DNA of 64,000 nt from Cetorhinus maximus (Eukaryota): contig NC_135879.1 of the NCBI RefSeq assembly GCF_964194155.1, positions 173,104,001 through 173,168,000 of the forward strand, read 5' to 3'. Made by a program: the position numbers and the translations under genes. The notes under the pieces are model-generated. The model did no database searches and had not been told where the DNA came from. It worked only from the letters and a program-made list of their open reading frames with translations. Shown in pieces: positions 2,552 through 63,140 of the stretch. Each line of letters opens with the position of its first letter. Positions within the stretch are counted from its first letter, which is position 1.

Positions 2552-2785
2552 ATTAAAAACAAAAAGCTACTGCGGATGCTGGAAATCCAAAACAAAAACA
2601 GAATTACCTGGAAAAACTCAGCAGGTCTGGCAGCATCGGTGGAGAAGAAAAGAGCTGACGTTTTGGGTCCACATGACCCTTCAACAGTTCTGTTGAAGGG
2701 TCATGTGGACCCGAAACGTCAGCTCTTTTCTTCTCCACCGATGCTGCCAGACCTGCTGAGTTTTTCCAGGTAATTCTGTTTTTGT
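2552..2785. mobile_element. Fold-back mini-element made of inverted Penelope pseudo-LTR sequence
   Basis: Arms 2592-2687 and 2690-2785 (96 bp, one mismatch seen, TT loop). TSD ATTAAAAATAG at 2541-2551 and 2786-2796. Sequence matches the termini of the Penelope copies at 18796 and 42123. Confidence 0.9.
2686..2724 (+). ncRNA. Minimal type-I hammerhead ribozyme motif (A6U core variant)
   Basis: AGTT-CTGTTGA-A-GGGTC-ATGTG-GACCC-GAAA-CG-TC-AGCT: stem I, core, stem II, GAAA, palindromic ACGT, GUC site. Confidence 0.7.
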
Positions 2786-18795: not shown

Positions 18796-20515
18796 AGATA
18801 AAAGCAAAAAACTGCGGATGCTGGAAATCCAAAACAAAAACAGAAATACCTGGAAAAACTCAGCAGGTCTGGCAGCATCTGCGGAGAGGAGCACAGTTAA
18901 TGTTTTGAGTCCGAATGACCCTTCAACAGAACTAAGTAAAAATGGGAGAGAGATGAAATATAAGCTGGTTTAAGGTGGGTGGGGGGGATGGCGGGGGGGG
19001 TGGGGGGGTGGGGTGGGTATGACAAGAAGAGCTGGATAGAGGGCCAGTGATAGGTGGAGATAACCAAAATATGTCACAGACAAAAAGACAAAGAGGTGTT
19101 GAAGGTGGTGTTATTATCTAAAGGAATGTGCTAATTAGAGGTAGAAAGCAGGATGAGCAAGGTACAGATAGCCCTAGGTGGGGTGGGGGGAAGGGATCGA
19201 AATAGGCTAAAAGGTAGAGATAAAACAATGGGTGGAAATACACTTAAAAATAATGGAAGTAGGTGGGAAAAGAAAAATCTATATAAATTATTGGAAAAAA
19301 CAAAAAGGAGGGGGAAAATCAGAAAGGGGGTGGGGATGGAGGAAAGAGTTCATGATCTAAAATTGTTGAACTCAATATTCAGTCCGGAAGGCTGTAAAGT
19401 GCCCAGTCGGAAGATGAGGTGCTGTTCCTCCAGTTTGCGTTGAGCTTCACTGGAACAATGCAGCAAGCTAAGGACGGACATGTGGGCATGAGAGCAGGGT
19501 GGAGTGTTGAAATGGCAAGCGACAGGGAGGTCTGGGTAATGCTTGCGGACAGACCAAAGGTCTTCTGCAAAGCGGTCACCCAGTCTGCGTTTGGTCTCTC
19601 CAATGTAGAGGAAACCGCATTGGGAGCAACGAATGCAGTAGACTAAATTGAGGGAAGTGCAAGTGAAATGCTGCTTCACTTGAAAGGAGTGTTTGGGCTC
19701 TTGGACGGTGAGGAGAAAGGAAGTAAAGGGGCAGGTTTTGCACTTTCTGCGGTTGCATGGGAAGGTGCCGTGGGAGGGGGTTGAGGTGTAGGGGCTGATG
19801 GAGGAGTGGACCAGGGTGTCCTGGAGGGAACGATCCCTGCAGAATGAGACCAGGGGGGGTGAAGGGAAGATGTGTTTGGTGGTGGCAGCATGCTGGAGTT
19901 GGCGGAAATGGTGGAGGATGGTCCTTTGAATGCGGAGGCTGGTGGGGTGATAAGTGAGGACAAGGGGGACCCTATCATGTTTCTAGGAGGGAGAAGAAGG
20001 TGTGAGGGCAGATGCGCGGGAGATAGGCCGGACACGGTTGAGGGCCCTGTCAACCACCGTGGGTGGAAAACCTCAGTTAAGGAAGAAGGAGGACATGTCA
20101 GAGGAACTGTTTTTGAAAGTGGCATCATCAGAACAGATGCGACAGAGGCAAAGGAACTGAGAGAATGGGATGGAGTCCTTACAGGAAGCGGGGTGTGAGG
20201 AGCTGTAGTCGAGGTAGCTGTGGGAGTCGGTAGGCTTGTAATGGATATTGGTGGACAGTCTATCACCAGAAATTTGAGACAGAGAGGTCAAGGAAGGGAA
20301 GGGAAGTGTCAGAGATGGACCATGTGAAAATGATGGAGGGGTGGAAATTGGAAGCAAAATTAACAAGTTTTTCCAGGTCTAGATGAGAGCATGAAGCAGC
20401 ACCGAAGTAATCATCGATGTACCGGAGAAAGAGTTGTGGGAGGGGGCCGGAGTAGGACTGGAACAAGGAATGTTCCACATACCCCATAAAGAGACAGGCA
20501 TAGCTGGGGCCCATG
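18796..20515 (-). mobile_element. 5'-truncated Penelope-like retroelement (RT C-terminus, GIY-YIG endonuclease, pLTR)
   Basis: MGPSYACLFMG..FLRYIDDYFG; YKPTDSHSYLDYSSSHP; LVYCIRCSQCGFLYIGETKRRLGDRFAE. TSD CATTTTTGCACTT at 18783-18795 and 20516-20528. Confidence 0.95.
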
Positions 20516-21659: not shown

Positions 21660-24230
21660 TCCATTTAGAGACAGTGATCATTGTATCATAAGGTTTAGGT
21701 TGGCCTAAAAGGACAATGAACAATCCAGAATAAGAATAATTAACTGGGGAAAAGCCAACTTCAATGAGGAAAGAATGGATTTGACCTAGATAAATTGGAA
21801 TCAACAGTTGGCAGGCAAAATGGTGTCTGAACTTTGGGCTGCATTTAAAGAAGAGATAGAGCAGCAGAGTCAAGTTATGTTCCCACGAAGAGGAAAGGCA
21901 GGGCAAACAAATCCTGAGCTCCTTAGATGAAAATGGGTGTAGGGATTAAGATGAAGAAAAAAAGTGTGCTTATGACAGATGTCAGGTGGATAATACAACC
22001 AAAATGAAGGTTCAGAGGGGAACTGAGAAAGCAAATAAGAGGAGCAAAGAGCAACTATGAGAAGAGATTGGCATCTAACATAAAAGGGGAATCAAAAAAT
22101 CCCCTGTAGGCATATAAATAGTAAAAGAGTGGTAAAAAGAGGAGTGGGGCCGATTAGAGACCAAAAGGGGGTTATGTACGGAGGCAGAGGGCATTGCTGA
22201 GGTATTAAATGAATACTTTGCATCTCTCTTTACCAAGGAACAAGGTGCTATGCATATCATGGTGAAAGAGGGTGTAATTCAGAGACCCAAAGGTTTAAAG
22301 TTGATCAGGAGGTGGTATTGGATAGGCTGTCTGTAGTTAAGAGTTGATAAGGCACCAAGAATGGATGGGATGCATCCAAGGATACTGAGGAAAGTGAGAG
22401 TGGATATTGCAGAGGCACTGGCCATAATTTTCCAATCTTCCTTAGAAGCAGGGTGGTGCCAGATGACTGGAGAATAGCAACTATTACACAGTTGTTGATT
22501 AAATGGTGTAAAGTTAAGCCCAGCAACTACAGGCCAGTCAGTTTATCCTCAGTGGTGGGGGAGTTCCTAGAAACAATAATTCAGGACAAAATTAATACCC
22601 ACTTGGGAAAATGCAGTTAACCAAGGAAAGTCAGCATGAATTGTTAAGGGCAAATCATGTTTAACTAATTTGCTGGAGTTTTCTAATGAGGTAACAGAGA
22701 GGTTTGATAAGGGTAATGCTCATGATTGGTCTTCCAAAAGGCATTTGCTAAAGTGCCACACAACAGACTTGTGAACAAAGGTAGAGTTCATGGTAGAGAA
22801 AGGACAGTAGCATCATGGGACTCGATTTCATAGGGGTGCCGTGGTCTCCGAACACCTAGCTAAAAAGTCACTGACAGGTCTGCCCACCATTGTGATGGTT
22901 GCCTCTCAGCAATTTAACGCTGGGAGCAGCACTAATTGTTTAAAGGTGACTTCTGCCCTTATCTCGAGAGTAAGTTCCACCTTAGAAAGCCAATCAGATA
23001 GTCGCAGTAATGCCAGATGAGACCGATGGCTATTGCAAGGATTCCAGGCGGGTCCCAATGATTAGGATCTCGGAATTCAGGTAAATCTGGGGTACAGTAT
23101 TGCCTGGGGGCAGGCTGGCAGGCCCTGGTGAGGGGGCTGAGGGGTTGGGGGACTTGGTTTGAGAGGCCACAGCGGGGAGATCAGTAAGGGGGAAGGATAA
23201 TCTTGACGGGAGTGGTACCTCTAAAAGGCACAGGGGACCCTGGCCCGGCATCAACCTGCACAGCTAAAGCTGCTGGGCTTCTCACATAACGTGGGCCTGC
23301 CCCTGCTGTGGGCAAAATAGAGGCAGGGGTTGGATGAGGCCCTTAAGGGGCCATTAATTTGAGACAGGTGGGGGGCAGTTGGGTAGGCAGCAGGCAAGCC
23401 ACACACTGGACTTTATGAGCCTCCCGCTTTTTAATCTGCGGGCAGGGAGCGTAAAATCCAGCCCATGGATACAAAATTGGCTGAGTGACATGAATCAAGG
23501 AGTAGTGGTTAATGAATGTTTTTTTGGGCTGGAGGAAGGTTTGTGGTGGAGTTCCCTGCTGGCCGGTCTAAGGACCCTTGCTCTTCCTGATATATATTAA
23601 AGGCGTAGACCTTGGTGCACAGGGCACCATTACAAAATTTGCAGAGGATACAAAGCTTGGAAGCATTGTGAACTGTGAGGAAGTTGGTGCTGAACTGCTA
23701 AAGGACATAGATAGGTTTTGATGGAATGGCTGGACAAGTGGCAGATGAAACTTAATGCAGAGAAGTGGGAATTGCAGAGGCACTGGCAATAATCTTTCAA
23801 TGTTACCTGGATTTGGGTGCGGGTGGGGAGGTTGCTGGAGGACTGGAGAATTGCAAACATTTACGCCCTCCTTCAAAAAAGGTTGTAAAGATCTGTCCTG
23901 CAATTACAGGCCAGCTAGGTTAAATCCGATGGTGGGGAAACTTTTAGAATCAATCATTCAGGATAGAATTAATAGCCACGTGGAAAAACGTGGATTGATT
24001 CAGAAGAGTCAGCATGGATTTGTTAAAGGGAAATCATGTCTAACTAACTTTCTGGAGTTTTTTGAAGAGGTAACAGAGATGATTGATGAGCTCAAGTTGA
24101 TGTGGTGTATATGGGCATTCGATACAATGCCACACAACAGGCTTGTAAGGAAAGTTATAGGTCATGGAATAAAAGGGACAGTAGCAACGTGGTTACAAAA
24201 TTGGCTGAGAAACTGATAGTAATGTTTAAT
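21660..24230 (+). mobile_element. Degenerate CR1 LINE ORF2 fragments (at least two copies)
   Basis: NYRPARLNPMVGKLLESII and SQHGFVKGKSCLTNFLEFFEEVT motifs; the same region appears at ~22400-22810 and again at 23766-24216. Confidence 0.9.
22818..23464. mobile_element. Harbinger-type MITE of a second family inserted in CR1
   Basis: TIRs GGACTCGATTT / AAATCCAGCCC; ATG TSD at 22815-22817 and 23465-23467; CR1 reading GTVAS-WIQNWL rejoins across it. Confidence 0.8.
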
Positions 24231-24484
24231 ATCACCACCGTCAACACCTCTTTATCCTTTTGTCTATGACATCTTTTGGCAATCTCCACCTATTACTGGC
24301 TCTCTATCCAGCTGTACCTGTCCTACTCCCAACCACCCCCCCCCCCGCCACCTTAAACCAGCTTATATTTCACCTCTTTTCTATTTTTCCTTAGTTCTGA
24401 TGAAGAGTCATTTGGACTCGAAACGTTAACTGTATTCCTCTCTGCAGATGCTGTCAGACCTGCTGAGCTTTTTCCAGGTATTTT
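24231..24484 (+). mobile_element. Penelope 3' UTR/pLTR fragment inserted in CR1
   Basis: Reverse complement of ~18840-19115; TSD TGTTTAAT at 24223-24230 and 24485-24492. Confidence 0.9.
24392..24432 (+). ncRNA. Minimal type-I hammerhead ribozyme motif with canonical core
   Basis: TAGTT-CTGATGA-A-GAGTC-ATTTG-GACTC-GAAA-CG-TT-AACTG. Confidence 0.82.
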
Positions 24485-25540
24485 TGTTTAATGGGTATTT
24501 TTCAGACTGGAAGAAGGTTTGTAATGCAGTTCCCCAGGGACCCCTGGGACCTTGGGTATTGAGACCCTTGCTTTTCCTGATACATATAAATGATCTAGAT
24601 CTCGGTATACAGGGGACAATTTTAAAGTTTGTGGATGACACAAAACTTGGGAGGATTGTAAACTGTGAGGAGGACAATGTAGAACTTCAAAAAGACATTG
24701 ACAGATTGGTGGAGAGGGCAGATAGGTGGCAGATGAAGTTCAACACGGAGAAGTGTGAGGTAATACACTTTGGTACAAAGAACATGGAGAGACAGTATAA
24801 CATAAAGGATACTATTCTAAAGGGTGTGCAGGAACAGAGAGACTTTGGTGTATATGCACATTAGTCATTAAAGTTGGCAAGGCAGGTAGAGAGAGTTGTT
24901 TCTAAAGCATACAGTATTCTAGGCTTCATTAATAGGGACATAGAGTACAAGAGCAGGGAGGTTATGATGAATTTATATAAGACACTGGTTAGACCTCAGC
25001 TGGAGTATTGTGTACAGTTCTGGGTGCCACACTATAGGAAGGATGTGAACTCATTGGAGGGAGTACAGAACAGGTTTATGAGAATGGCTCCAGGAATGAG
25101 TCACTTCAGTTATGAGGAAAGATTGGAGAAGTTGGGACTGTTTTCCTTGGAGAGGAGAAGGCTAAGAGGAGACTTGATAGAAGTTTTCAAAATCATAAGG
25201 GGTCTGGACAGAGTAGATAGGGAGGAACTGCTCGTAAATAGAATGAGAAGCAGAGAGCACAGTTTTCAAGTGTTTTGCAAAAGAAGCACATGCGAGGTGA
25301 GAAAACATTTTTTCACATAGCGAGTAGTTAGGGTTTGGAAAGCACCGCCTGGAAGTGTGTTAGAGGCAGGTTCAATTGAAGCATTCAAGAAGGCATTGGA
25401 TGATTATTTAAATAGAAACAACGTGCATGGTTACGGGGAAAAGGCAGGAGACTGGCACTCAGTTCAAATGCTCAGAGAACCGTGCAGACACGACGGGCCA
25501 AGTGGCCTCCTCCTACACCATAACAATTCTGTGATTCTGT
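24485..25540 (+). mobile_element. CR1 LINE RT to 3' end
   Basis: VPQG..LFLIHINDL..KFVDDTKL; LYKTLVRPQLEYCVQFW; LERRRLRGDLIEVFKI; tail ATTCTGTG repeat. Confidence 0.95.
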
Positions 25541-31496: not shown

Positions 31497-32295
31497 TTAG
31501 ATAAAAGCAAAATACTGTGGATGCTGGAAATCTGAAACAAAAGCAGAAAATGCTGGAAAAACTCAGCAGGTCTAACAGCATCTGTAGAGAGAGAAAAACA
31601 TGCATGAGAAAGAGTGCAGTTTTCTCCGTGGGGCATGGAGCTGCCTCAGGGAGATTGGTTAAAATTTTTAAAAGCTAAATAGAGGGAAGAAAATATTTTA
31701 AGACATGTCGCCTCATGTGACAGTGTCACATCAATTGGGACATGTCAAGGAGCATTAATGAAAAGCTTTATTTAACTTATAAAAACTTCATGAAACCTCG
31801 TCCCACCCGTGGATGAGGTTCCATGAAAAATGCGAATGCCGCCTGGGCTCTTCGCCTGCCGCCAACCTTAAGGTTGGACGGGCAGCTTACTTAATTGTTT
31901 TAATTAGTTTTTAACAGGTTTTAATAGGCCTTTGACTGTTCGGTGGGCGCGCAGTCGACAGCTGGAAATCTAAATGACGCGCGGTGACATCGGGACGCAT
32001 GCCCGATGTCACGGCGCGCCATTTTATGTGTCAGCGAGTTGGCCCCGCCCCTGCTCGCTGACCTGAAAATTCTGCCCAATGTTTCGAGTCTGTATGACGC
32101 TTCTTCAGAGCAAGAAGGAGGGTCTGAAGAAGCATCATACAGACTTGAAATGTCACTCTGTTACTCTCTCCACAGATGCTGTTAGACCCGCTAAGCTTTT
32201 CCAGCATTTTCTGTTTTTGCGTCACTCTGTTACTCTCTCCACAGATGCTGTTAGACCTGCTAAGATTTTCCAGCATTTGCTATTTTTGCTTCAAA
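31497..32295. mobile_element. Penelope pLTR fold-back element split by a partial Harbinger MITE (31600-32078)
   Basis: Left arm 31497-31599; MITE ends GAAAATTCTGCCC at 32078; centre and right arm 32079-32295 with a hammerhead-like motif at 32120-32158 and a ~70-bp tandem duplication. Confidence 0.85.
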
Positions 32296-32766: not shown

Positions 32767-33208
32767 GGGGTTAGAGTTCGGTTGGCTAACAAACTCATTT
32801 ACACAAGACATATAACCTACCCAAAGTCCCAAACCATTTTCCTGAGTCAAAAGTTGTTAATTATGCATGGCATGAGGTGGGATTTTCACTGCCAATGTGA
32901 TGCTCACCAGTGTCACTGGAAAGAATCTAGTAGTGTTGCTGTTGGTACCATAAGGGCAGTGAAGGGCCATTTAAGGTGCAGAGCAGCCATGAAGATGGTA
33001 TGGGCTGTAGCCTCCTAAGTGTCAGCAGGGGCTGAGACGTCAATGGATAAGTAAGTGGGGAGCAACTTTATAAGAAAGATGCACCCTATTAAAGCCTCTT
33101 TCTCCACTGCTGTACTTCGGGAGTATGTCAGTTATTGGTTTAGGCATAATTTAAATTCCAGAAAGAGGATTTCAGTTTCCTAGTGGTTTAACTTTGCTTT
33201 AAAGTAAC

Positions 33209-33275
33209 TTTAACCCTCAATTGTTTGTCTATTGTATCAAAAAATGATACAATAGACAAACAATTAAGGGTTAAA
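33209..33275. repeat. 31-bp inverted repeat with 5-nt loop
   Basis: TTTAACCCTCAATTGTTTGTCTATTGTATCA-AAAAA-TGATACAATAGACAAACAATTAAGGGTTAAA, one mismatch. Confidence 0.95.
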
Positions 33276-33279
33276 ATTA

Positions 33280-33808
33280 GCACAAATTCGTGCTGGTTCC
33301 TTACATGCCCCTTGAAGTGGCAAACCCTCGGTGTAGCATTAACTGGCCCACCGCTACTTTCAGATTAGTGCACACAGATGTCACATCACTTTAGAAGTTG
33401 TGGGGCCTTTGCAACATCCAGTCATGAACTCTGAATGTATTATCACTCTTGGCTCTTGCAAAATCTGGCTCCATCATGCATCAGCAAAGTAACCTAATTA
33501 TCAGTTTGAATACTGCTGCATTGGTGAACATAGCCAAATCATATGAGATATGATGTTAAGTTTCCTTCATCTGTGGATTTATCATTGGAAGAGCACTAGA
33601 ACAGTTTTTAAACTTGCTGGTGTTAGACTGCCAAGAACCCATCTAACTTTCATTATGCATTTTCATTGAATATTTGTACTGAGTTCCACACATTAGTAAT
33701 GCCCCTGCTTCTTTAGGGGCTAGAGAGGAAAAGTCAAGGTCGAAGACTCAATGTAGCATTTTATACCTATAACTATATAGCTGAAGATCAGTGGCAAGGT
33801 TCTGTGTT
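33280..33808. repeat. Local duplication, copy 2 (paralog 29497-30016)
   Basis: Same orientation and colinear with copy 1. Confidence 0.95.
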
Positions 33809-36065: not shown

Positions 36066-36294
36066 GATTAAGGCAAAACACTGCAGATGCAGGAAATCTG
36101 AAACAAAAACAAAAATTGCTGGAAAAGCTCAGCAGGTCTGACAGCATCTGTGGAGAAAAAGACAGAGTTAACGTTTCGAGTCCGTATGACGACTCTAACG
36201 AAGAGTCATACAAACTCGAAACGTTAACTCTCTCATTCTCTTCACAGATGCTGTCAGACCTGCTGAGCTTTTCCAGCATTTTTTGTTTTTGTTT
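36066..36294. mobile_element. Penelope pLTR fold-back mini-element
   Basis: Inverted arms ~36101-36190 / ~36206-36294 centred on a decayed hammerhead (CTAACGA-A-GAGTC..AACTC-GAAA-CG-TT-AACTC). Confidence 0.88.
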
Positions 36295-37029: not shown

Positions 37030-37493
37030 TCAGATCTGCCTCAGGGAGATTAATTTGATTGTGAAAAATGGAAAGAAAGAATTAAAAAAATTATTCAGAC
37101 ATGTCCCAGCTCATGTGACAGTGTCACATGAGCTGGGACATGTCTATGAATTTTAATAAAATTTTTTATTAAAGTTATAAACCCTTCATGAACCTCATCC
37201 TGCCCGTGGATGAGGTTCCATGAAAAATGCAAAGGCCGCCTGGGCTCTTTGCCTGCCCGCCAACCTTAAGGTTAGACAGGCAGCCCTGACAAGCACTTCA
37301 ATTAGTTGATAAATGGCCTTAATAGATCCTTGACAGTTTTGCGGGCGGACAGCCAACTCCAGTGCGCGCCCGCCGAACCGAAGATTGGAATGATGCGCGG
37401 TGACGTCGGGACGTACGCCTGACGTCACCGTGTGTCAGTTTATGCATCAGCATGAGGGGTCGTCCCCTGCACACCAACCAGAAGATTCTGCCC
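37030..37493 (+). mobile_element. Partial Harbinger-derived MITE
   Basis: Perfect palindrome at ~37097-37145; ends GAAGATTCTGCCC. Confidence 0.9.
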
Positions 37494-37989: not shown

Positions 37990-39915
37990 AGTGCCTGGTG
38001 GCATTGTGAGGCCTCAAGGCCAACCTAGACATACCTATTTGCGAGCCTGACAAAGGGACTGGAATGGTCACCCTTAACAAGTGTGACTATATTCACAAAA
38101 TGCATGCCCCATTCTTAATGATGCATCCAAATTTGTATCCATTGGACCCGTCGCTATGCATGACCACACAGCTATGCTTGAAAACAAGTTACAAAAATGT
38201 TTGTTAAATTTGCAAAAGGGTAAGGGCTGCCTTGTGGCATATACAATAGGATTCATCCTCATGATTCACTGCATCCACTTATGGGTATGAGCTGCCCAAG
38301 ACACACAAAAGTGATGTCCCATTATGCCCTATTTTATCTCTGACTGGTTCTGCATAACATGAGTTGGCCAAATAGTTGAATGAGTTGCTACAACCAGTTA
38401 TGAGTGAGTTTTCAACATACATGGATTTCTTCACCTTCATGAAGACAATATGTGACCTTCATATGGATAGCTATGATGTGTCTATGTGTTCATTCAACAT
38501 TCCTAGCCTATTACTAATGTGCTGCTCAAGGAAGCCATAGACATTTGTGCCTCATCACTATGGCATCGCAATCTAGATGGGTCACTGTAGTAAATCTGTA
38601 TTCATTGAACTTACAAACTTAACAACTCACACAGTTGCATTCAGCTTTGATGACATCACGTATGCCCAAATTGATGGTAGTGCCAGGGCATCCCCTCTGG
38701 AACCAGCTCTCATGAACATTTTTGTCAGTTTCACGAGAAACCCGTTCTCGGTAGAATGGCTCCTAACCTCCTACCCCTTGCATACCTCTGAATTATAGAT
38801 GCCAATATGTCTGCTGTATTTGAATCTGCAGCTGTGTGTAAGCATTTTCTTACACATTTTAATGCGCTCCATTCCACGCTTAAATTCACCTTTGAAATGG
38901 GGCAGCCTAATGAGCTTCCTTTCCTCAGTGTGCTAATTGAGAAATTCACTGATGGGTCCTCAACTACCTTCACTGATCATTATACACGTTGGATTCCTAC
39001 ATCTCCACCCGCTTTAAAATTGCCTTTATTTGCAATTATCTAAATAGGGCCCGAGCCATTTGCTTACTGGGCAAGCTTGATATTGAAATAGAGTGCATCA
39101 AAGCTATCCTGCAGGATAATGCTGAGATCATTGCTCACTGTGTATCACACATAGCTACAAATGGGTCTAAAGTCATTACGTTTGAACCTGAAAAGTTCCC
39201 AGTCTACCTCAAATTACCATTGAAGTTATCACAAAAATTTGAGCAACATGTAAAGCTGGTTGTTTCAAGCTGCTACTATGTAGTAGCAACATGTGTGGTA
39301 TTTACCACTAGCAGATCCAGCCGTCGAGGCAAAAAGATGTTCTGCATACCACGGAAATGAGTTGTGTGATATATGAATTTCAGTCCTGATGTGATGCTGT
39401 ATGTCCCAATGATTAGCAGATTGAATCAAACAGTATGTCTCTTTGGCTGTTCGAAATAGACTGTGTATTGACCATGCTCAACCAGCCCATGCTTTGAAAC
39501 TCAGAACATAATATCCAACATTAGATGTAATTCCACAATTGGGCAGCACTGGCTGAGCAATCCTGAGTGTGCTAGGAGTTACATTAACAACAAATTTAAG
39601 ATTATCAGATGGGCTCACGATGTGGCTCACTTACCCATGCTAGAAGCTATATATATTCATATGCAGGGACCTGCCTTCTGCAGGAAAAAGCACCATGCCC
39701 AGGAATTGTGCTTCTTTTGAATTAAACAAATGCATGGGGTACAATAGTTCACTCCATAGTAATGCCTTGACCAATCAGAGTCAACTTGCCAACTAATCAA
39801 CACCCTTTTCTCATGCAGTATGAATTGTTGTTCCCTTTGAAATTTGGCCTCTGCCTCTGTCCTAATGGGTGCGAGACGAAAATGTTCGACAACATGTCTC
39901 TTTTTTTCAGCATAA
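37990..39915 (+). mobile_element. Degenerate Penelope-like element, family 2
   Basis: PDKGTGMVTLNKCDYIHKM; YAQIDGSARASPLEPALMNIFV; FNALHSTLKFTFE..LPFLSV; decayed GIY-YIG ~39360-39440; pLTR with hammerhead remnant at 39858-39892. Confidence 0.88.
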
Positions 39916-40310: not shown

Positions 40311-42122
40311 TGCCTATAAAATGATTTGTTTAAGCAAGAATTATACCCAATATTGCTTCACTTGTATTAGAGGAATAAGAAAAATACATAGGTGCATGAA
40401 CGGCTGAAGGAAAAATTCAATTTTTGTATTTCTAGGTGGAGTACAGGACTTGCTCATGCAGAAAAAAAATGAGTTTCTCTATGGAAAATGATGTATTCTG
40501 GTTAAGTTTAAGCAATTTTAAACTTCGCAATTAATGCACTTACAACTTAAAAAAGAAAACAAAGTACGATTTGAATTATCAGCAGAGCAATCATACTTTC
40601 ATTGACACAAAAGCTACCCAGTCAGTGCTCCACCTCTCCAGCTCGCAAAGACATTCTAATCGCTCCGCAAGAAAACAAGAAAGAAAGTAAGCTTATATAA
40701 CGCCTTGCCATATTGTCATACCTTCAGGATGTTCCTAAGAGCTTCACATCCAATACAAGGATGATCCGGAAATGTTTGTTGATTGCCAAATACAAAACTA
40801 TTATTCAAATGTTCAATATTACTTCGGCCTCTTAAAAATTTGAAAAAGGATTCTCTTTAAAAAGGGCTCAGTCCAATTTCTTCTCTATCGTGTATGCATA
40901 TCTGGAGTGAAGGGCTTTGATTCAAACTTACCTGAAGAATAATCCCAAGGAAAAGAACAGGTCCCTTCACTCACTGCATCGTTTTCTTCTTCGGCATCCG
41001 TCTGTCTAGGAGACGGTGGACTGTGCACAGGGTGTAAATCGCTTCTGGATTGGACATCATCTGTTGTGGCTATAGAGGCCAATTCACAAGTGATTGTTCC
41101 TTCTGTAGCTGGCAAAGATGAATGTCATTGGCCCGAAGTTGACTGATGTTGTTTTCCTTCTGGCAGGCTCTCTTTTCTGCCATCTTGTCATTTCTTTTGT
41201 CCTCTGCTTTTTCCACACCCTTTTTTGACAGTTTGTCTTCAGGCACTCCAGTCAGCAATGAGGACATTCCATGCATCGGCACCGACCCAGGTCAGCTTGA
41301 GGTCTCGCTTACAGGTGTCCTTGCATTACAGACGTGGGTGACCTGTTGGCCTTGTGCTTATAGTAGGCTCGCCATAGAGCAATAGAGCATGTCTTTTGGC
41401 ATGTGCACATGACCCAGCCATCAGTGTCGCCGCTGAATCAAAACAGCACACATGCTGGGGATCCCCGCATGCTGGGGGACTTATATATTCGGCACTCCAG
41501 GAGTTGCCCAAAATTTGCCTGAGGCAGAGGGAGTGTAAGATGTTCAGCCACTGTTCTTGGCTTGCATAAGTTGCCCATGCTTTGCTACTGTAAAGGAGGG
41601 TGCAGAGAACACAAGCCTGGTACACAAGGAGATTTGTATTTTCGGTTAGTTTGCTGTAGGCCCACACTCAACCTCTCAACTTTGACATGACAGCTGCGGT
41701 CCTGGCAAACCTGGTGCTGATTTTGCCATTGAGGGACAGATTGTTGGTAATGGTTGACCTAAGGTATGTGAAGCTGTCAACGACCTCCAGAGTGAGGTTG
41801 TCAATGTTGATGGAAGGTGGAGTCTCTACGTCCTGGCCCATAACTTTGGTCTTCATGACACTGTTCATATGTCCAAACTCCTTGCAAGTCTGGGAGAATC
41901 GATCTACAAACTGTTGCAAGTGAGCTTCTGTGTGGGATGCTAGCATGGTGTCATCAGCAAACAGAAGAACATAAGAAATAGGAACAGGAATAGACCATTC
42001 GGCCCCTCAGGCCTGCTCCGCCATTCAATAAGATCATGGCTGATCTTCTTGTGTTTTAATTTCCACATTCCCATCTACCCCCTATTACCTTTGATTCCCT
42101 TGCCTAACAAGAATCTATCTAC

Positions 42123-43490
42123 AACAAAAACAGAATTACCTGGAAAAACTCAGCGGGTCTGGCAGCATTGGCGGAGAAGAAATCAGTTAACGTTTCGAGC
42201 CTTCATGGCCCTTCGGCAGAACTGAAGCATAGTTAGAAGAAGGGAGAAATATAAATTGGTTTAAGGTGGGTTGGGGGGGGTGGAGAGACACATTGAGGGT
42301 GTGGTGATTGTGGAGATGAGCAGATAATCAAAAGATGTCACAGACAAAAGGGTCAAAGAGGTGTTGAAGGTAGTGATATTTGTCTAAGAAAAGTGCTAAT
42401 TAAGAATGGAAGACAGGATATTCAAAGTACAGCTCTAGTGGGGGTGGGGTGGAAAGACTAACAAGGTTTTAGTTTAGATTTAAAAATAATGGAAATAGGT
42501 GGGGAAAGAAGAATCTATATAAATTATTGAAAAAAAAAGGGGGGGGGGAAGAAACGGGTTGGGGATGGGGGGAGGGGGAGTTTAAGATCTAAAGTTGTTG
42601 AATTCAATATTCAGCCCAGAAGGCTGTAAAGTGCCTAGTCGGAAGATGAGGTGCTGTTCCTCCAGTTTGCGTTGGGCTTCACTGGAACAATGCAGCAAGC
42701 CAAGGACAGACATGTGGGCAAGAGAACAGGGTGGAGTGTTAAAATGGCAAGCGACAGGGAGGTTTGGGTCTTTCTTGCGGACAGACCGCAGGTGTTCCGC
42801 AAAACGGTCGCCCAGTTTGCGTTTGGTCTCTCCAATGTAGAGGAGACCGCATTGGGAGCAACGAATGCAGTAGACTAAGTTAGGGGAAATGCAAGTGAAA
42901 TGCTGCTTCACTTGAAAGGAGTGTTTGGGCTCTTGGACGGTGAGGAGAGAGGAAGTGAAGGGGCAGGTGTTGCATCTTCTGCGTGGGCATGGGGAGGTGC
43001 CATAAGTAGGGGTTGAGGAGTAGGGGGTGATGGAGGAGTGGACCAGGGTGTCCCGGAGGGAATGATCCCTACGGAATGCCGTCATGGGGGGTGAAAGGAA
43101 GATGTGTTTGGTGGTGGCATCATGCTGGAGTTGGCGGAAATGGCGGAGGATGATCCTTTGAATGCGGAGGCTGGTGGGGTGATAAGTGAGGACAAGGGGG
43201 ACCCTATCATGTTTCTGGGAAGGAGGAGAAGGCGTGAGGGAGGATGCGCGGGATATGGGCCGGACACGGTTGAGGGCCCTGTCAACGACCGTGGATGGAA
43301 AACCTCAGTTAAGGAAGAAGGAGGACATGTCAGAGGAGCTGTTTTTGAAGGTAGCGTCATCAGAACAGATGCGACGGAGGCGAAGGAACTGAGAGAATGG
43401 GATGGAGTCTTTACAAGAAGCGGGGTGTGAGGAGCTGTAGTCGAGGTAGCTGTGGGAGTCGGTAGGCTTGTAATGGATATTGGTGTTTTT
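42123..43490 (-). mobile_element. 5'-truncated Penelope-like element (GIY-YIG + pLTR)
   Basis: ORF 42582-43085 with CPRRRCNTCP and LVYCIRCSQCGLLYIGETKRKLGDRFAEHL; TSD AAGAATCTATCTAC at 42109-42122 and 43491-43504. Confidence 0.95.
42184..42224 (-). ncRNA. Minimal hammerhead motif (A6C core variant)
   Basis: Minus strand CAGTT-CTGCCGA-A-GGGCC-ATGAA-GGCTC-GAAA-CG-TT-AACTG. Confidence 0.68.
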
Positions 43491-54552: not shown

Positions 54553-56749
54553 ATGGGCAGTGGAAGGGCTCCCCAGAGCGCTGCTGGTGAGCAGGCCAGG
54601 CAGGAGGGTAGGGCAGGTGGGCACTGTGCCCCTTGTTTTTCTGACGATTGCCTTGCTGCCCTCCTCGAGGAGGTGGCAGCATGGTGGGAGGTCCTCGTAC
54701 CTGAGGGCGGGAGGAGGAGGCCCCCCCTACATGACCAAATGTGCCTTGGAGGAGGTGGCGGAGGTTGTGAGCACTCATGACATGGTGTGACGCACCTGGA
54801 TCCAGTGTCACAAGCGCTTAAACAACCTGTTGTGCTCGGGAAGAGTGAGTACCATGTTGGCATTGGTCACTTAGCCCAGCAGGTAGGCTTTCCCCCCTGG
54901 CGCCCCACCCCCCAAGTCTGAGTGTAGTGACTGCATTGAATCATTGACGGCATGTATCCTTCGCTGGGTGGGCCAGCAGATACTTCCCATGCCGAGGTCA
55001 CCCTGAGAGGGTGGTGAAGAGATGGGTTCTGCACCCGCAACATGTGGTACACTGAGACCCACATGACTGTTTTGGGGGCAACCTGGAGGAGCTGCACCTA
55101 GGTGCTGTGCTGGAACTCCAGGACATGTCAAAGTCAGGGTGATGACATGCTGGGAGGGGAGCTTCAAGGTGGCGGACACTGATTGATCTGCTGTCCTCTG
55201 CGCTCCACATGCTTGCACCTCCTTGCTATGGAAGGTTAGACCGTGTGGTGCCAAATGTGATGTAGGCAGCAAGGGGGGCAGCAGGGGAAAACAGGCCTAG
55301 CATCTTTGTGTGAGTGTTCGGCAGCAGCAGGGTGAGAAGACACTGGAGCCCTGCAATGTCCCACTCTGGTTGGGGTGGGCCGTCCGCGAAGAGCGTCCAG
55401 GTACAATTAACACTAATCAATGCTCTTCTCTCCTTTTCAGGAGAAGAATGCATATAATGCAGCCGAGCGGGTGAGGATTGGCGGAGGCCCGGCACAGTTA
55501 GCGATTCTCAGCCACTTTGAGCTGGAGGCCCTCGATCTGGAGAGGCGCCATACACCCAGGTCCACCGGTGTCGGTGAGGCTGGGGGGCCACGGGCAGGTA
55601 TGTTAGCCCAGCACTGAGGTCACCATTGTTCTCCCAACAGCCATGGCAGTGCTGAATGTCCAGTGATTGAAGTTTGCAACATGGCTTGACCATTGCTTAT
55701 GGGAGGACGAGCGCATAATGAACCGGGGAACAGGGATGCACATTGACATTGTCTCCACGTTAACTGATCCAATATCCTTGTCCTTCCTTTCAGCATCAGC
55801 GGATCAGGGCCGGGAGGAGGAGCAGCAGCAGGGGCCCACTCTCACACCTGAGGGCCCTGAAGTCTCGGACTCACCAGTGTCACACCATCTCTGCCAGGCA
55901 GGCACCAGCGCAGATACCAGCACCTCGGTAGGAATTAGAACATCAGCTAGTGTCCCGGGGCACAGCGGTCAGGACACTTCACAGTCGCTGGAAGAGCTGG
56001 CAGAGACAGAGAGTGCCCATGGCGCCAGCAGTCGGAGGACTGCAGGGGGCCAGGCAAATGCTCAGCCAGATGATGTGCCTCTGGAGTCGTCCGCGACGCA
56101 GCAAACGCAGGAAATGCGGCCAGGTGTGCGGGAGCATCTGGGGGAGACACATGAGGCTATGCTTGGCTTGGTGTCCATGCTGGAGGAGTCCACACGGACC
56201 ATCACCGATGCAATGAGCCTCATGGCTGAGCGTCATGCGTCCTCCATGGAGAGAGTGGAGAGGCTCCTCCAGGAGACCCATGAGGGCTTCCTGGGGATGC
56301 GCTCAGACCAGCAAGCCCTCACATCGGCATTGACCTCAGCTGGTCAGTGTCAGTGTGGGAGATGGTCAGGGCACCAAGTTGCCCAGCTCATTGCCCATCC
56401 ATCTACGGTGAGCAGGGAGGTCCGAAGTGACTTCACATCAGCGCAGCAGCTGCCTGTTGTCACTGCGAGCTCCTCACAGGGTGCTCCGGATGAGGGCGGC
56501 AGCTCCTCCGCCCCTCTGCCAGTGACCGTTGCATCCGATGAGGCTGCAACGACGGGGGAGATGCCAGCTGTGGAACAGGCAGCTCCTTCCCAGGCAGGGC
56601 CAGCACAGGCTCCATGGGCCAGAGGACGATCACTAAGGCCATCGAGGCCAACAGGACAGCAGAGTCAGCAGGCTGTCTCAGATGCCACTCCCAGCAAGGG
56701 GGCAGCACTAAGATGTAGTACCCGGAAACGCAAACATAAGGCACCTTAG
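54553..56749 (+). pseudogene. Harbinger Myb/SANT (NAIF1-like) gene, exons 54553-54844, 55441-55597, 55794-56749
   Basis: APCFSDDCLAALLEEV..EEVAEVVS..RTWIQCHKRLNNL; exon 2 ERVRIGGGP; GT-AG introns in compatible phases 0 and 1. Exon 1 has a C-run frameshift and TGA at 54788-54790. Confidence 0.87.
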
Positions 56750-57083
56750 GCACACCAGTTTATCACTGGTACTTTTGTGTTGGCCCGAGATGAGGTCATT
56801 ATGAGTTGGTGTGATGTTTAATACCTTTGTCATTTTGTTTTCTTAAGATCCTTTGGTTGTAATATTAAATTCAGGCATGTCACCATGTCTGAGGGTGCCT
56901 CTTTTCTTCTGTGGGTGGATAGTTACCAATAATGTTATGAGTGATTTGTGGGACATTCAGCTTTATTGACAAGGCCCTTAGTTAATGTTCCGATCCAGGC
57001 AGATTTTGCACTCAGGTATCAGGTATGGAGCCTACAACCCAGGCTTGTCCTGGAGGTCCATCTGTGGTGTGCTAGCTTTAGGT

Positions 57084-58300
57084 TCATTCGATTAAAGCCT
57101 CTCGGGTGTCCCTGCCTCCCTGGAGTATGCCCGGGTCAGCGTCTACCCCCTCTGCATTTCCCTGTGCGTGCTCACCCTCGGACTCACTGCTGGACTCATC
57201 GTGTGCAGCTGCAGCCACTGCGTTGACGTCTTCATTGTCCACTGCGTCCCCCCTTTTCAGCGCAAGATTGTGGAAAGCACAGCCTGCAACCACTATCAGT
57301 GACACACAATCTGGGAGGTACTGGAGTGCGCCCCCCCGAGCAGTCCAGACATCGGAAGCGCATTTTGAGAAGACCAATGGTTTTCTCCACCATAGCGCTT
57401 GTGGTGCCGTGGCTCCTATTGTACCGCTGCTCAGCTTCTGTTCTTGGATGGCAGAGAGGTGTCATGAGCCACCTTCTGAAAGGATAGCCCTTGTCACCCA
57501 GTAGCCATCCATCAAACCAGGCTGAAGCATTGAAGAGCTCAGCACCTGGGAGTGTCTGAGGATGTAGGCGTCGTGGGAGCTGCCAGGGTACCTTGCACAG
57601 ACTTGTAGAATCAGCATCCTGTGATCACACACTATCTGCACGTTCATGGAGTGGAAGCCCTTCCTGTTGACGAAGGCACCGGGCTCACCTGCTGGTGCCT
57701 TGATGGCCACATGTGTACAGTCTATTGCATCCTGGACATGGGGGAAGCCAGCAATGGCCGTGAAGCCTCTGGCTCACTGTGTCTGGCTTGCCTGATCCCA
57801 ACAGAAGTGGATGAAGGTCAATGCATGCCTTAACAGAGCGTCTGTAAACTGCTTGACACAAGTGTGGACAGCTGATTGGGAGACACCGCAAAGATCACCC
57901 ACCGAGCCCTGGAAGGAGCCAGAGGCATAGAAGTTGAGGGCAGCTGTGACCTTTAGAGCCACTGGCATGGGGTGTCCACCCACACAATTTGCGGAGATCT
58001 CAGGTCCAATCACCTGACAGATATAGTTGACTGTCTCCCTTGACAGTCGGAGCCTCCTCCAGCACTGCACCTCAGACATATTGAGGTAGCTGCTTTGCTG
58101 CCTGTATACCCTGGCAGCAGGATAGTGGCGTCTTCTGCGACCCCTTCCACCTTGGACTACCTCTTGGCCCCTTGTGCCTGCGCCTGTCCTCCCATAGGTG
58201 GCTCCCCTGGAGGCTGAATGTGCACTCCTGGCCTCCTCCCCCTTATATCCCTCCCTTCCTCCTCAGAGGAGGTGCCTCCAGTGGAGAGTTCAACTCCCAT
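57084..58300 (-). pseudogene. HARBI1-type DDE transposase (frameshifted)
   Basis: [74 protein letters not shown] and ACAFHN-like motifs; putative ATG at 58300. Confidence 0.95.
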
Positions 58301-60249: not shown

Positions 60250-63140
60250 CTAACAAATTTGCAGTATGGGGGAAGAATTGGATGAGGCCTGATATTGGGC
60301 ACGGCAATTACAAAGTGAAACTTTGTGCTACTTGCTCAGCAACGTGACTACAGCGTGCAGACCACCGTGAAATGTGCTGATTGCTGACTGCATGGTCAAT
60401 AGGGCGCCCAGGTATGTACCTGATTAAGATGACGCATGGTTGCCTGCACCTCTTAAAAGCAGCCTGCCCTTCTTAAAGGCTAGGTGGACTCATGTTGTAG
60501 GAGCTGCTGAAATAGTCAGGAAGACTTTGCTGGTTATAGAGTCATAGTCATAGAGGTCTACAGCACAGAAGAAGACCCTTTGGCCCATCGAGTCTGCACC
60601 AGTCAAACAAGTACCTAACTATTCTAACCCCATTTTCCACCACAAGGCCCATAGCCTTGTATGCCATGGCATCGCAAGTGCACATCTAAATACTTCTTGG
60701 TTGGTAGAGGACTACAATTAGAGAAATAGGCCTGAGGGCTCCAACATACTTGGATGCAGACCTGGAGCCCTTACTGATGGAGGTTGAAAGGAGAAGAAAT
60801 GCTATGTTTCCACAGGGGGCCAGAATGCTTTAAAAGCACATCCTGTGAGGAGAATAGGAGCAGATGACCAAGAAGAGAATGAGAAGATGACCAATTCCCA
60901 GAGCCTGTCCAGAAGGACCTGGCTATAGTGTGGGAATATAATTCAATTACCTCACATGACAGGTCAAAGGTGCATATTCAAATTACTTCTACCTACTGCA
61001 TCATGAGCCTCTCCTGCTGCTCAATGCATCATACCTCCATCACTCACCCATCAGCAATCAGAACTTATACTGAACATTCAGAGACTCCATCTAACCCTCA
61101 CACACTTAGCATGCTTCCAGCCTCAAACCCTATTCTTGCTACTTCCACATTCCTTCAGCTATAGAATGCACATCACCCAAACACTTTGCACAGTCATCAC
61201 TGACATTTACCCACTTTCTTGCAGGACAAGGTGGTACATAACAGCAGAGGGCAGAAGTGAACTGATAGTGTGACAGGCATACCTACATCTCCTGACCCCT
61301 GCATCCTGGCTGTGATTACGGTTGTTGCAACAATTGTTCCTGAGAACATCCAGGATGATATGTTCCTGCCTATGCACTTTCTCAAATCCCATGTCACCCT
61401 CATCCTGCTATCTGGCATGAAGTGCAAGTTGCAGATAGTGTGATCATGGACATCTTGCTTTCAATCCCACTCCCCTTCTCTCACCCCAACCCTCCCTCTG
61501 ACTTTCTGCTTTCAGATACCCAAGAGGTGCTACCTGGTCAGATACTACAGCCTCATTGTAAAGGGTGAGAACAACATCAGACCTCTGATGAAGAGGCACC
61601 ATTACATGACACGCACAGTCACTAGCTTAGAAACTAACACTATGGGTCTTCGAGGGTAGTATAGAGTCAGGATCAGAATGGGGTGAGTCAATGGGGACAA
61701 GTAGGCTGCAGTCAGACAAAGGAGAAAGGACAGTTTGTGTGTCAGTTCCCTGCAGGGTGAGGTTAATGATGAGTTCTGCTGCAAAGGATCTGATTGAGGA
61801 TTTCATTGGAGTGGCATACCGAAGAATGCTGATGGCCATGCGCACAGAAATGCCTGTTGCACTGGCATGCTTCTTGACACTATCAAGCAGCATGGAGGAG
61901 TCCAGCTCCAACTTTGTACAGGGCTACACGCGGTGTTTAGAGCCCATCCTTCCCAGATAGAAGTGGTGGCCAACAACATGACAACAGTTGTGAAGCAAGC
62001 TGAGGTGCAGTGTCTGGTGGGCAATGTCTCAGCTTCCATTGCAGCACAAGCAGACGCTACCCAACATCCTGGTGCTGCAATGGAAGCTCAGACTGAGGTC
62101 ATGCCTATTGCTGTGCAAGCCCAGTTTGGTGCCAAACAGGCTCAGCCCACTGCCATCATGGCTGCAGGCTCTCACAGCAATCCAGAAATCTGTTCTCCAA
62201 CAGGTAGGATCAGGGATAATTGGTGCCAATTGACTCATTAATGAGTCTAATTAACATCTCACTGCGAGCGGGCGAGTTTCCCACTTCTGGGAGGTGTCAA
62301 CTGTGGCTCAGTTCATAGCACCCTCGCCTTTGAATCAGAGGGTTGTGAGTTCATGTCCCACTCCCGGAAACCAAGAACTGTGATTGTACTCGAAAGAGTT
62401 GCAATCTGTGACTGTTGATAACGCGAAAGAGTTTCCCACTTCTGGCCCCTTCTGACCTTGGGCTTAACTGCAGGAAGATTTCCAACCACTGGGAGATTGA
62501 CACGTGATCTCTCCCATGATTAGCTGAGCCTGGCCGCCATGTTTCCTGCCACAATGGGCTGAATTAAATTCCACCCATTGTGATGTGAGAATGACACCTC
62601 AGGGGAACTGAAATCTGAGTATCCACTCCCAGATAGCTTAAAGAGAAAAAGGGGTCCTGGATACCTCATCCTTGCTTTTCTCCTTTGCCCTCTTCCCCTT
62701 TCTTTTTTCCTTCACTTCATCTCCCTCCTGAAATGTTCTCCAAGTGATTGGTGGCAACGGCTTTGTCCTCATGATAGCAAGGTTGTAGAGCATGTAGTAG
62801 ATAAATCATGAACTTGGAGACACATGCTGCAGTGTACTGAAGGGTACCCCTTGTGTGGTGCAGGCTGCAGAACCATTGCTTCAAGATGTTGTTGGTTTGT
62901 TCCACGATATTCTTGGTGGCTGCATGGCTCACATTGTAGACGTGCTATTCCTGCCTGGTTGGGTGGCAGAGGGGAGTCATAAACCAGGTGTAGAGCAGGT
63001 TTCCCTTGTCACACAGCAACTAATCTCTGGTTCTGTCTATGGGGCCAAAGATGGTTGGTACAGCTATACCAGCTGCTGCTAGGATAATGGCCATTCATGA
63101 CAGGATATTCTGGGTTACACACCAGCTGCATGTTAATGGA
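60250..63140 (+). mobile_element. Old Harbinger remnant (Myb + ~60730-60970, transposase - ~62700-63140) with CR1 tail insert at 60537-60697
   Basis: RAPTYLDADLEPLLMEVERRR Myb-like start; minus strand HAATKNIVEQTNNILKQWFCSL..LQY. Confidence 0.75.

Follow-up and report, generated by a model that had tools for sequence, protein, structure and literature searches.

The DNA between positions 24393 and 24431 (+ strand) of the 64-kb window, which is the whole stretch that was analysed, carries a hammerhead motif with a complete core and a minimal type I fold, as read from the sequence and the register of its pairs. The motif is almost certainly a minimal hammerhead of the kind found in Penelope-like elements. 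With good confidence we regard it as the hammerhead of a Neptune/Nematis-type Penelope element of sharks and rays, which was left as a solo, 5′-truncated piece of a pseudo-LTR (pLTR), is intact by chance and is most likely inert. The relevant features of the window are listed in Table 1.

Table 1. Positions of the hammerhead motif, its parts, the surrounding repeat and related copies in the window
Feature	Positions	Strand	Remarks
Minimal type I hammerhead motif	24393..24431	+	Predicted cut after 24427, GUU triplet; single descriptor match in the window
Stem I, 4 bp	AGTT 24393-24396 / AACT 24428-24431	+	Assigned by register
Core C3-A9 (CUGAUGA, 24397-24403) and extra A (24404)	24397..24404	+	Extra A between 9 and 10.1
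Stem II, 5 bp, 5-nt loop	24405..24419	+	GAGTC 24405-24409 / GACTC 24415-24419
G12-A14 (GAA 24420-24422), ACGU 24423-24426, U17 24427	24420..24427	+	Helix III needs two copies to close
5′-truncated solo pLTR fragment of a Penelope-like element, ~260 bp	24231..24489	+	Family match from 24227
8-bp direct repeat, left copy	24223..24230	+	Likely target-site duplication; some of it matches the element as well
8-bp direct repeat, right copy	24485..24492	+	
Host LINE reverse transcriptase before the insertion	23749..24216	+	Pfam RVT_1 profile 7-106, E 7e-8
Host LINE reverse transcriptase after the insertion	24490..24864	+	RVT_1 profile 106-194, E 1.6e-6, frame 24430-24864
3′ splice-site-like stretch (putative)	24369..24394	+	Pyrimidine tract, YAG; overlaps 5′ arm of stem I
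ATG (24448) and short frame start	24448..24489	+	Donor-like CAG/GT at 24477/24478
Penelope-like copy, 5′-truncated	18800..20514	-	RT end, GIY-YIG, pLTR with hammerhead 18933-18895, tail
Penelope-like copy, 5′-truncated	42117..43484	-	Linker, GIY-YIG, pLTR with hammerhead 42223-42185 (A6C)
Head-to-head inverted pair of short copies	2596..2781	.	Joined at 5′ edge of core; both A6U, one also G12A
Inverted pair (32078-32216) and 69-bp tandem duplication	32078..32293	.	Decayed hammerheads 32124 (+) and 32108 (-)
Inverted pair	36107..36288	.	+ copy: G5A, mismatch in stem II; - copy: no core

The core, the extra A, the stems and the ACGT read exactly as an earlier note on this DNA had described them, and in this register the cut that the note had predicted after 24427 falls behind U17. 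When the core was compared with the pattern CUGANGA / GAAA / UH, the copy with C3 at 24397 showed no deviation. The extra base between positions 9 and 10.1 is A24404, and the G10.1-C11.1 pair is formed by G24405 and C24419. Positions 15.2-16.2 form the palindrome, which has no loop 3; helix III is thus a loopless, palindromic ACGU, and the self-complementary stretch reaches AACGUU. The loop of stem II departs from the majority of the family at 24412-24413. The stems that the note had quoted for other copies were found at their places. The motif had also been called the best preserved, and it is the one copy among the nine tabulated in which the core, both stems and the palindrome are all intact.

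A descriptor of the minimal hammerhead, run over both strands of the 64 kb, matched only at 24393-24431. The descriptor was written after the motif had been seen; in dinucleotide shuffles it gave any match in 1 of 600 and a match with a palindromic helix III in none. The heptamer CTGATGA alone was not enriched (19 matches, 13.4 expected, and 9 of 100 shuffles reached 19), and the fold of the monomer was ordinary when compared with shuffles (z = -1.08). None of the 14 matches of an Rfam search at E≤1 was to a hammerhead family, a null result that lowers membership in the Rfam hammerhead models alone.

The repeat surrounding the motif (24231-24489) is a 3′ portion of a terminal repeat that belongs to a Penelope-like element encoding a reverse transcriptase (RT) and a GIY-YIG nuclease. 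When 24201-24510 was compared with the window by BLAST, there were 11 additional matches. The two longest, 19116-18838 (82% identity) and 42380-42128 (74%), are on the minus strand in repeats behind GIY-YIG frames, and in the two elements concerned the repeat follows directly 3′ of the GIY-YIG stop. These elements, both 5′-truncated, are 83% alike over 1435 bp; the hammerhead of the first (18933-18895) carries A6U and G12A and has lost the palindrome. Among 801 candidate proteins 27 matched the element frame at E≤1e-10, the top matches being from whale shark (64%), devil ray (62%) and zebra shark (59%) and carrying RVT_1 and/or GIY-YIG domains. These matches place the host among the elasmobranchs. 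The C-terminus of a zebra shark model, back-inferred from the protein, fits translation that reads through an A6 hammerhead following an ORF of this type. In viral contigs none of the four candidates for the GIY-YIG frame was a confirmed relative; a 21-base flank pattern found no stretch in viral contigs and one in metagenomes, which was unrelated coding sequence.

In the frames 42582-43304 and 19350-19982 a Zn-finger-like C-x4-C-x2-C linker is followed by a C-terminal GIY-YIG domain. Because the linker stands before the nuclease, the element would appear to be of Neptune/Nematis type. The C-terminal GIY-YIG and the Cys-rich linker (C-x4-C-x2-C in the 42582 frame) are shared with the Neptune and Nematis elements described by Craig et al. 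(2021, PMC8557442), as are 5′ truncation, inverted 5′ copies and an optional tail; this placement, by features alone, probably holds for Neptune and Nematis jointly and does not separate the two.

The insert splits the RVT_1 domain of a LINE at Pfam profile position 106. We take the interrupted host LINE to be CR1-type. The traits of Penelope-like insertions are present in the window: 5′ truncation, a short (8-bp) repeat resembling a target-site duplication, inverted head-to-head pairs and variable tails. The frame starting at 24448 may form the element ORF's 5′ end, by analogy with published pLTRs, which hold the first ~12 ORF codons.

The motif agrees in detail with the minimal hammerheads of metazoan Penelope-like pLTRs (see Cervera and De la Pena 2014, PMC4209133). 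As described there, these share with it the type I fold, CUGANGA with an extra base, the G10.1-C11.1 pair, a 5-bp helix II, the loopless ACGU palindrome and a short helix I, and U17 is common; they too occur mostly as single copies, with opposite-strand pairs, and in the 3′ pLTR behind the RT-endonuclease frame. The copy at 24393-24431 is one more example of this class described in 2014. Published accounts already include repeats with hammerheads from a chondrichthyan, and vertebrate elements of the Neptune and Poseidon types. In a literature search that covered few subscription papers nothing relevant on Penelope hammerheads in sharks was found, A6U was found only for twister ribozymes, and exonization of a Penelope hammerhead was not found.

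The extra A had been said to be known from a viroid hammerhead, and it is: the (+) hammerhead of CChMVd has an extra A10 between A9 and G10.1, which is reported to lower the rate moderately (PMC1636495, PMC3705267). The viroid hammerhead differs in its full helices, loop-loop contacts and unrelated origin. As a link to viroids the extra A was rejected, since an extra base between 9 and 10.1 is described as general in Penelope minimal hammerheads (PMC4209133).

That the motif probably works only as a dimer, as had also been proposed, is borne out in structural terms: in a Penelope-type minimal hammerhead such as this, helix III can be formed only with a second copy. Judging from published relatives, when an intact element in tandem is transcribed, two copies would exchange strands, each supplying a core and a stem II; the ACGU of one copy would pair with the ACGU of the other to form helix III, and each copy would cut its partner after position 17, slowly and probably only in the presence of the element's protein. 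Penelope minimal hammerheads are reported to show no cleavage as monomers and low cleavage as dimers, and one of nine Xenopus dimers cleaved. A reduced, palindromic stem III is shared with the small hammerheads that cleave as dimers (Lunse, Weinberg and Breaker, as cited in PMC6765202 and PMC6466107); in those, cleavage as dimers is tied to a tandem layout, whereas the copy at 24393-24431 is not in tandem. In PAc, a Poseidon element of the anole (Frangieh et al. 2024, PMC11167929), the hammerhead also lies in a vertebrate pLTR near the ORF start, with a 3′ tail and an AT-rich target, but the element belongs to the Poseidon clade and its ORF begins at stem II. According to that report the anole hammerhead required the element's protein to cleave, insertion could do without it, and RNA-seq showed no ends where it cuts. 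Cleavage by Penelope hammerheads is weak, depends on protein in one case and is dispensable for insertion in vitro.

Folding argued against an active monomer. In energies that omit magnesium and other ions, tertiary contacts and proteins, the open-core monomer had a probability of 0.016, and in the favoured monomer fold the core pairs with the ACGUU side. The double hammerhead with all pairs drawn had -13.3 kcal/mol, compared with -18.6 for two monomers and -22.2 for the best dimer. Extension of the palindrome to AACGUU through U17 could tie up A14 and U17. The intactness of the motif requires no selection. The motif is 87% and 79% identical to those of the two long copies and the flanks are 82-91% identical, so that the motif is no closer than its surroundings; simulated neutral decay at 4-10% per site, a range assumed from pairwise identities, left 0.3-2.9 intact motifs among 8 copies. 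Since the copy at 24393-24431 has no neighbour, is predicted to misfold alone and would need no selection to be intact, it is in all likelihood inert in vivo. Weak cleavage may still be seen with a synthetic tandem dimer made from it.

Covariation was counted in a gapless alignment of seven of the nine copies; 2687 (-) was excluded as the inverted counterpart of 2690, and 36190 (-) because its core is missing. In this alignment 87% of the cells were paired and four of the nine pairs showed a double change; the covariation score of 0.376 was reached in 1 of 500 shuffles, a control that ignores relatedness. Stem II has two true double changes, A-U to G-C in 2690 and U-A to C-G in 42219, each in one copy. 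Both of these copies lack A6 (2690 is A6U, 42219 is A6C), and two copies break the pair that is changed in 2690. In stem I, AACT/AGCT is a one-sided wobble and the double changes come from junction copies. The GGGT/ACTC stem I was rejected as covariation: it belongs to copy 32124, which starts at an inversion junction, has a 3′ arm one base shorter, two of the five stem II pairs broken and a non-palindromic helix III. There is less covariation than the note had proposed: in stem II it amounts to these two double changes, in single copies with non-canonical cores, and in stem I the double changes are those of the junction copies. In data from four public runs 24406 was A>G in 15, 17, 8 and 8%, and a change of its partner 24418 was absent among the rows listed; the differences listed inside the motif across runs were 24400 A>T, 24406 A>G and three loop positions. 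Absence from this table is no proof of conservation, because it holds only listed rows and is biased towards reference-like contigs. A protein-level proxy for covariation gave too few pairs: phmmer found two unrelated repeat proteins, and a word search one true match among 16 candidates. Covariation is compatible with the hammerhead fold, yet thin.

The size of the family was assessed by mapping 321 bp to the four runs at 80% likeness, runs with small word shares being left out. Two large, genome-scale runs gave 26,334 and 20,292 matching contigs, and two runs guessed to be RNA gave 3,752 and 929. The family is very large, although contig depth is not a copy number. The RNA-like contigs match the family at large, of which the copy at 24393-24431 is one member.

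In all four runs position 6 of the core (24400) was A>T in a large share of the family depth (48, 38, 57 and 45%). The window has A6U in two independent insertions and A6C in a third (42219). This differs from the 2014 alignment (PMC4209133, Fig. S3), in which all 56 rows, none from a shark or ray, have A6, and for which the descriptor required A6. That about half of the family depth is without A6 raises doubt whether cutting matters for the family, and we consider it unlikely that cutting has ceased to be the main role of the motif in this family. Besides the U6 share, the 5′ edge of the core is a boundary of copies: among the best-supported rows listed, loose ends at 24396 mark the start of 159 contigs in one large run and of 131 in the other, and their flanks are long and do not agree (0.35-0.37 agreement). 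Opposite-strand joints, in the rows listed, cluster at 24394-24400, and the three inverted pairs of the window also join at the 5′ edge of the core. No comparable row of loose ends at the cut site was among those listed for the two large runs. Two bases ahead of C3 there is a YAG in all three copies that retain the upstream repeat, and also in three published fish rows (PMC4209133), and the D. virilis Penelope intron ends at helix I. Mutants of the anole ribozyme had no effect on insertion in vitro in the published report (PMC11167929). On the other side, no spliced junction was seen in the contigs of the four runs, the peak of loose ends rests on the rows listed, and the pyrimidine tract before the YAG is weak evidence because the whole repeat is 72-75% pyrimidine. 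Nor need U6 copies be dead: a natural A6C hammerhead retains low activity, and U6 masters could hitch-hike on partner copies or on protein from others. For the A6 copies a loss of the cutting role is moreover compatible with the explanation preferred here, a solo and probably inert pLTR piece.

A wider form of the same idea, which we hold to be rather improbable, is that the shark Penelope hammerhead is largely uncoupled from cutting, that the 5′ edge of its core sets the ends of copies, and that the segment can be exonised and serves as a structural or splice landmark. About half of the family, with U or C at A6 and stem II still paired, would then be missed by standard descriptors. If uncoupling were true, the A6/U6 pair would be a natural experiment on the purpose of Penelope hammerheads. 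Two leads deserve to be kept, the division of the family into A6 and U6 and the boundary of copies at the 5′ edge of the core, and the copy at 24393-24431 is useful as an A6 reference for a family that is also spread with U6.

Two further observations concern this segment. A small pseudo-palindrome, YAG-TT-CTG, lies together with an acceptor-like signal at 24394-24400. Three white-shark COMMD9 models contain a 30-residue in-frame insert that is absent from the human chain and equals the translated hammerhead segment of the repeat up to the donor-like CAG/GT; back-reading implies U6. The insert is at one locus, in predicted models, and starts ~4 bases upstream of the YAG. It is a possible exonisation of the repeat.

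The earlier note had suggested that dispersed copies could pair in trans or within long host transcripts. The window speaks against this, and we judge it highly unlikely that such pairs form and cut transcripts. The family is indeed very abundant and its sequence occurs in both of the runs with a guessed RNA origin; for heterodimers with copies 2690 and 42219, structures in which every pair forms can be drawn (-15.2 and -14.6 kcal/mol), and in principle the copy at 24393-24431 could be the enzyme for a partner that retains ACGU-U-AACU. However, a cut after 24427 needs the core and stem II of the partner, and none of the eight other copies in the window combines a canonical core with an intact stem II. 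The distances to same-strand copies are 7.7, 11.8 and 21.7 kb, and no host gene was identified in the 64-kb window. A dimer would rely on 4-bp helices and is predicted to lose to misfolds; even published tandem constructs cleaved poorly, with eight of the nine Xenopus dimers showing no cleavage.

There is very little chance that the short copies make up a family of retrozymes of the non-LTR kind, in which tandem units give rise to circular RNAs, and not truncated Penelope ends. Such retrozymes, with type I hammerheads related to those of pLTRs, from which they derive, were reported in the one chondrichthyan genome sampled (PMC7229834; bioRxiv 10.64898/2026.07.22.740005), and the unit of the 69-bp tandem at 32152-32293 starts at most 3 bases from the predicted cut of the 32124 copy. 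Retrozymes differ in being tandem units that each have a hammerhead, whereas the copy at 24393-24431 is solo: no tandem of two or more consecutive units, each with a complete hammerhead, was found at this locus. Its upstream part continues into the repeat found behind a GIY-YIG frame, and it lacks the 6-bp helix I with loop contacts that hammerheads of canonical retrozymes have. In the 69-bp tandem the core is missing from the second unit, and the duplication is also explained by a short shared motif (microhomology) at its junction. A chance match, which the unenriched heptamer, the ordinary monomer fold and the Rfam result would allow, has a practically negligible probability and is refuted by the rarity of the full descriptor in shuffles and by the position of the motif, which is exactly the site of the hammerhead in Penelope elements and is in register between the copies of a family.

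Other repeats were seen in the window. A 127-codon frame at 38977-39360 (+) has no Pfam match; we presume a resemblance to the end of the RT in a different Penelope clade. The GC-rich region 55667-58262 (-) contains a piece of a DDE_Tnp_4 transposase and an adjoining 360-codon frame, and presumably belongs to a Harbinger-type element. Short perfect inverted repeats at 33204-33280, 37079-37170 and 62023-62096, unrelated to the hammerhead family, gave weak Rfam microRNA matches; these were rejected as microRNAs, all of them being inverted repeats that scored below the gathering score.
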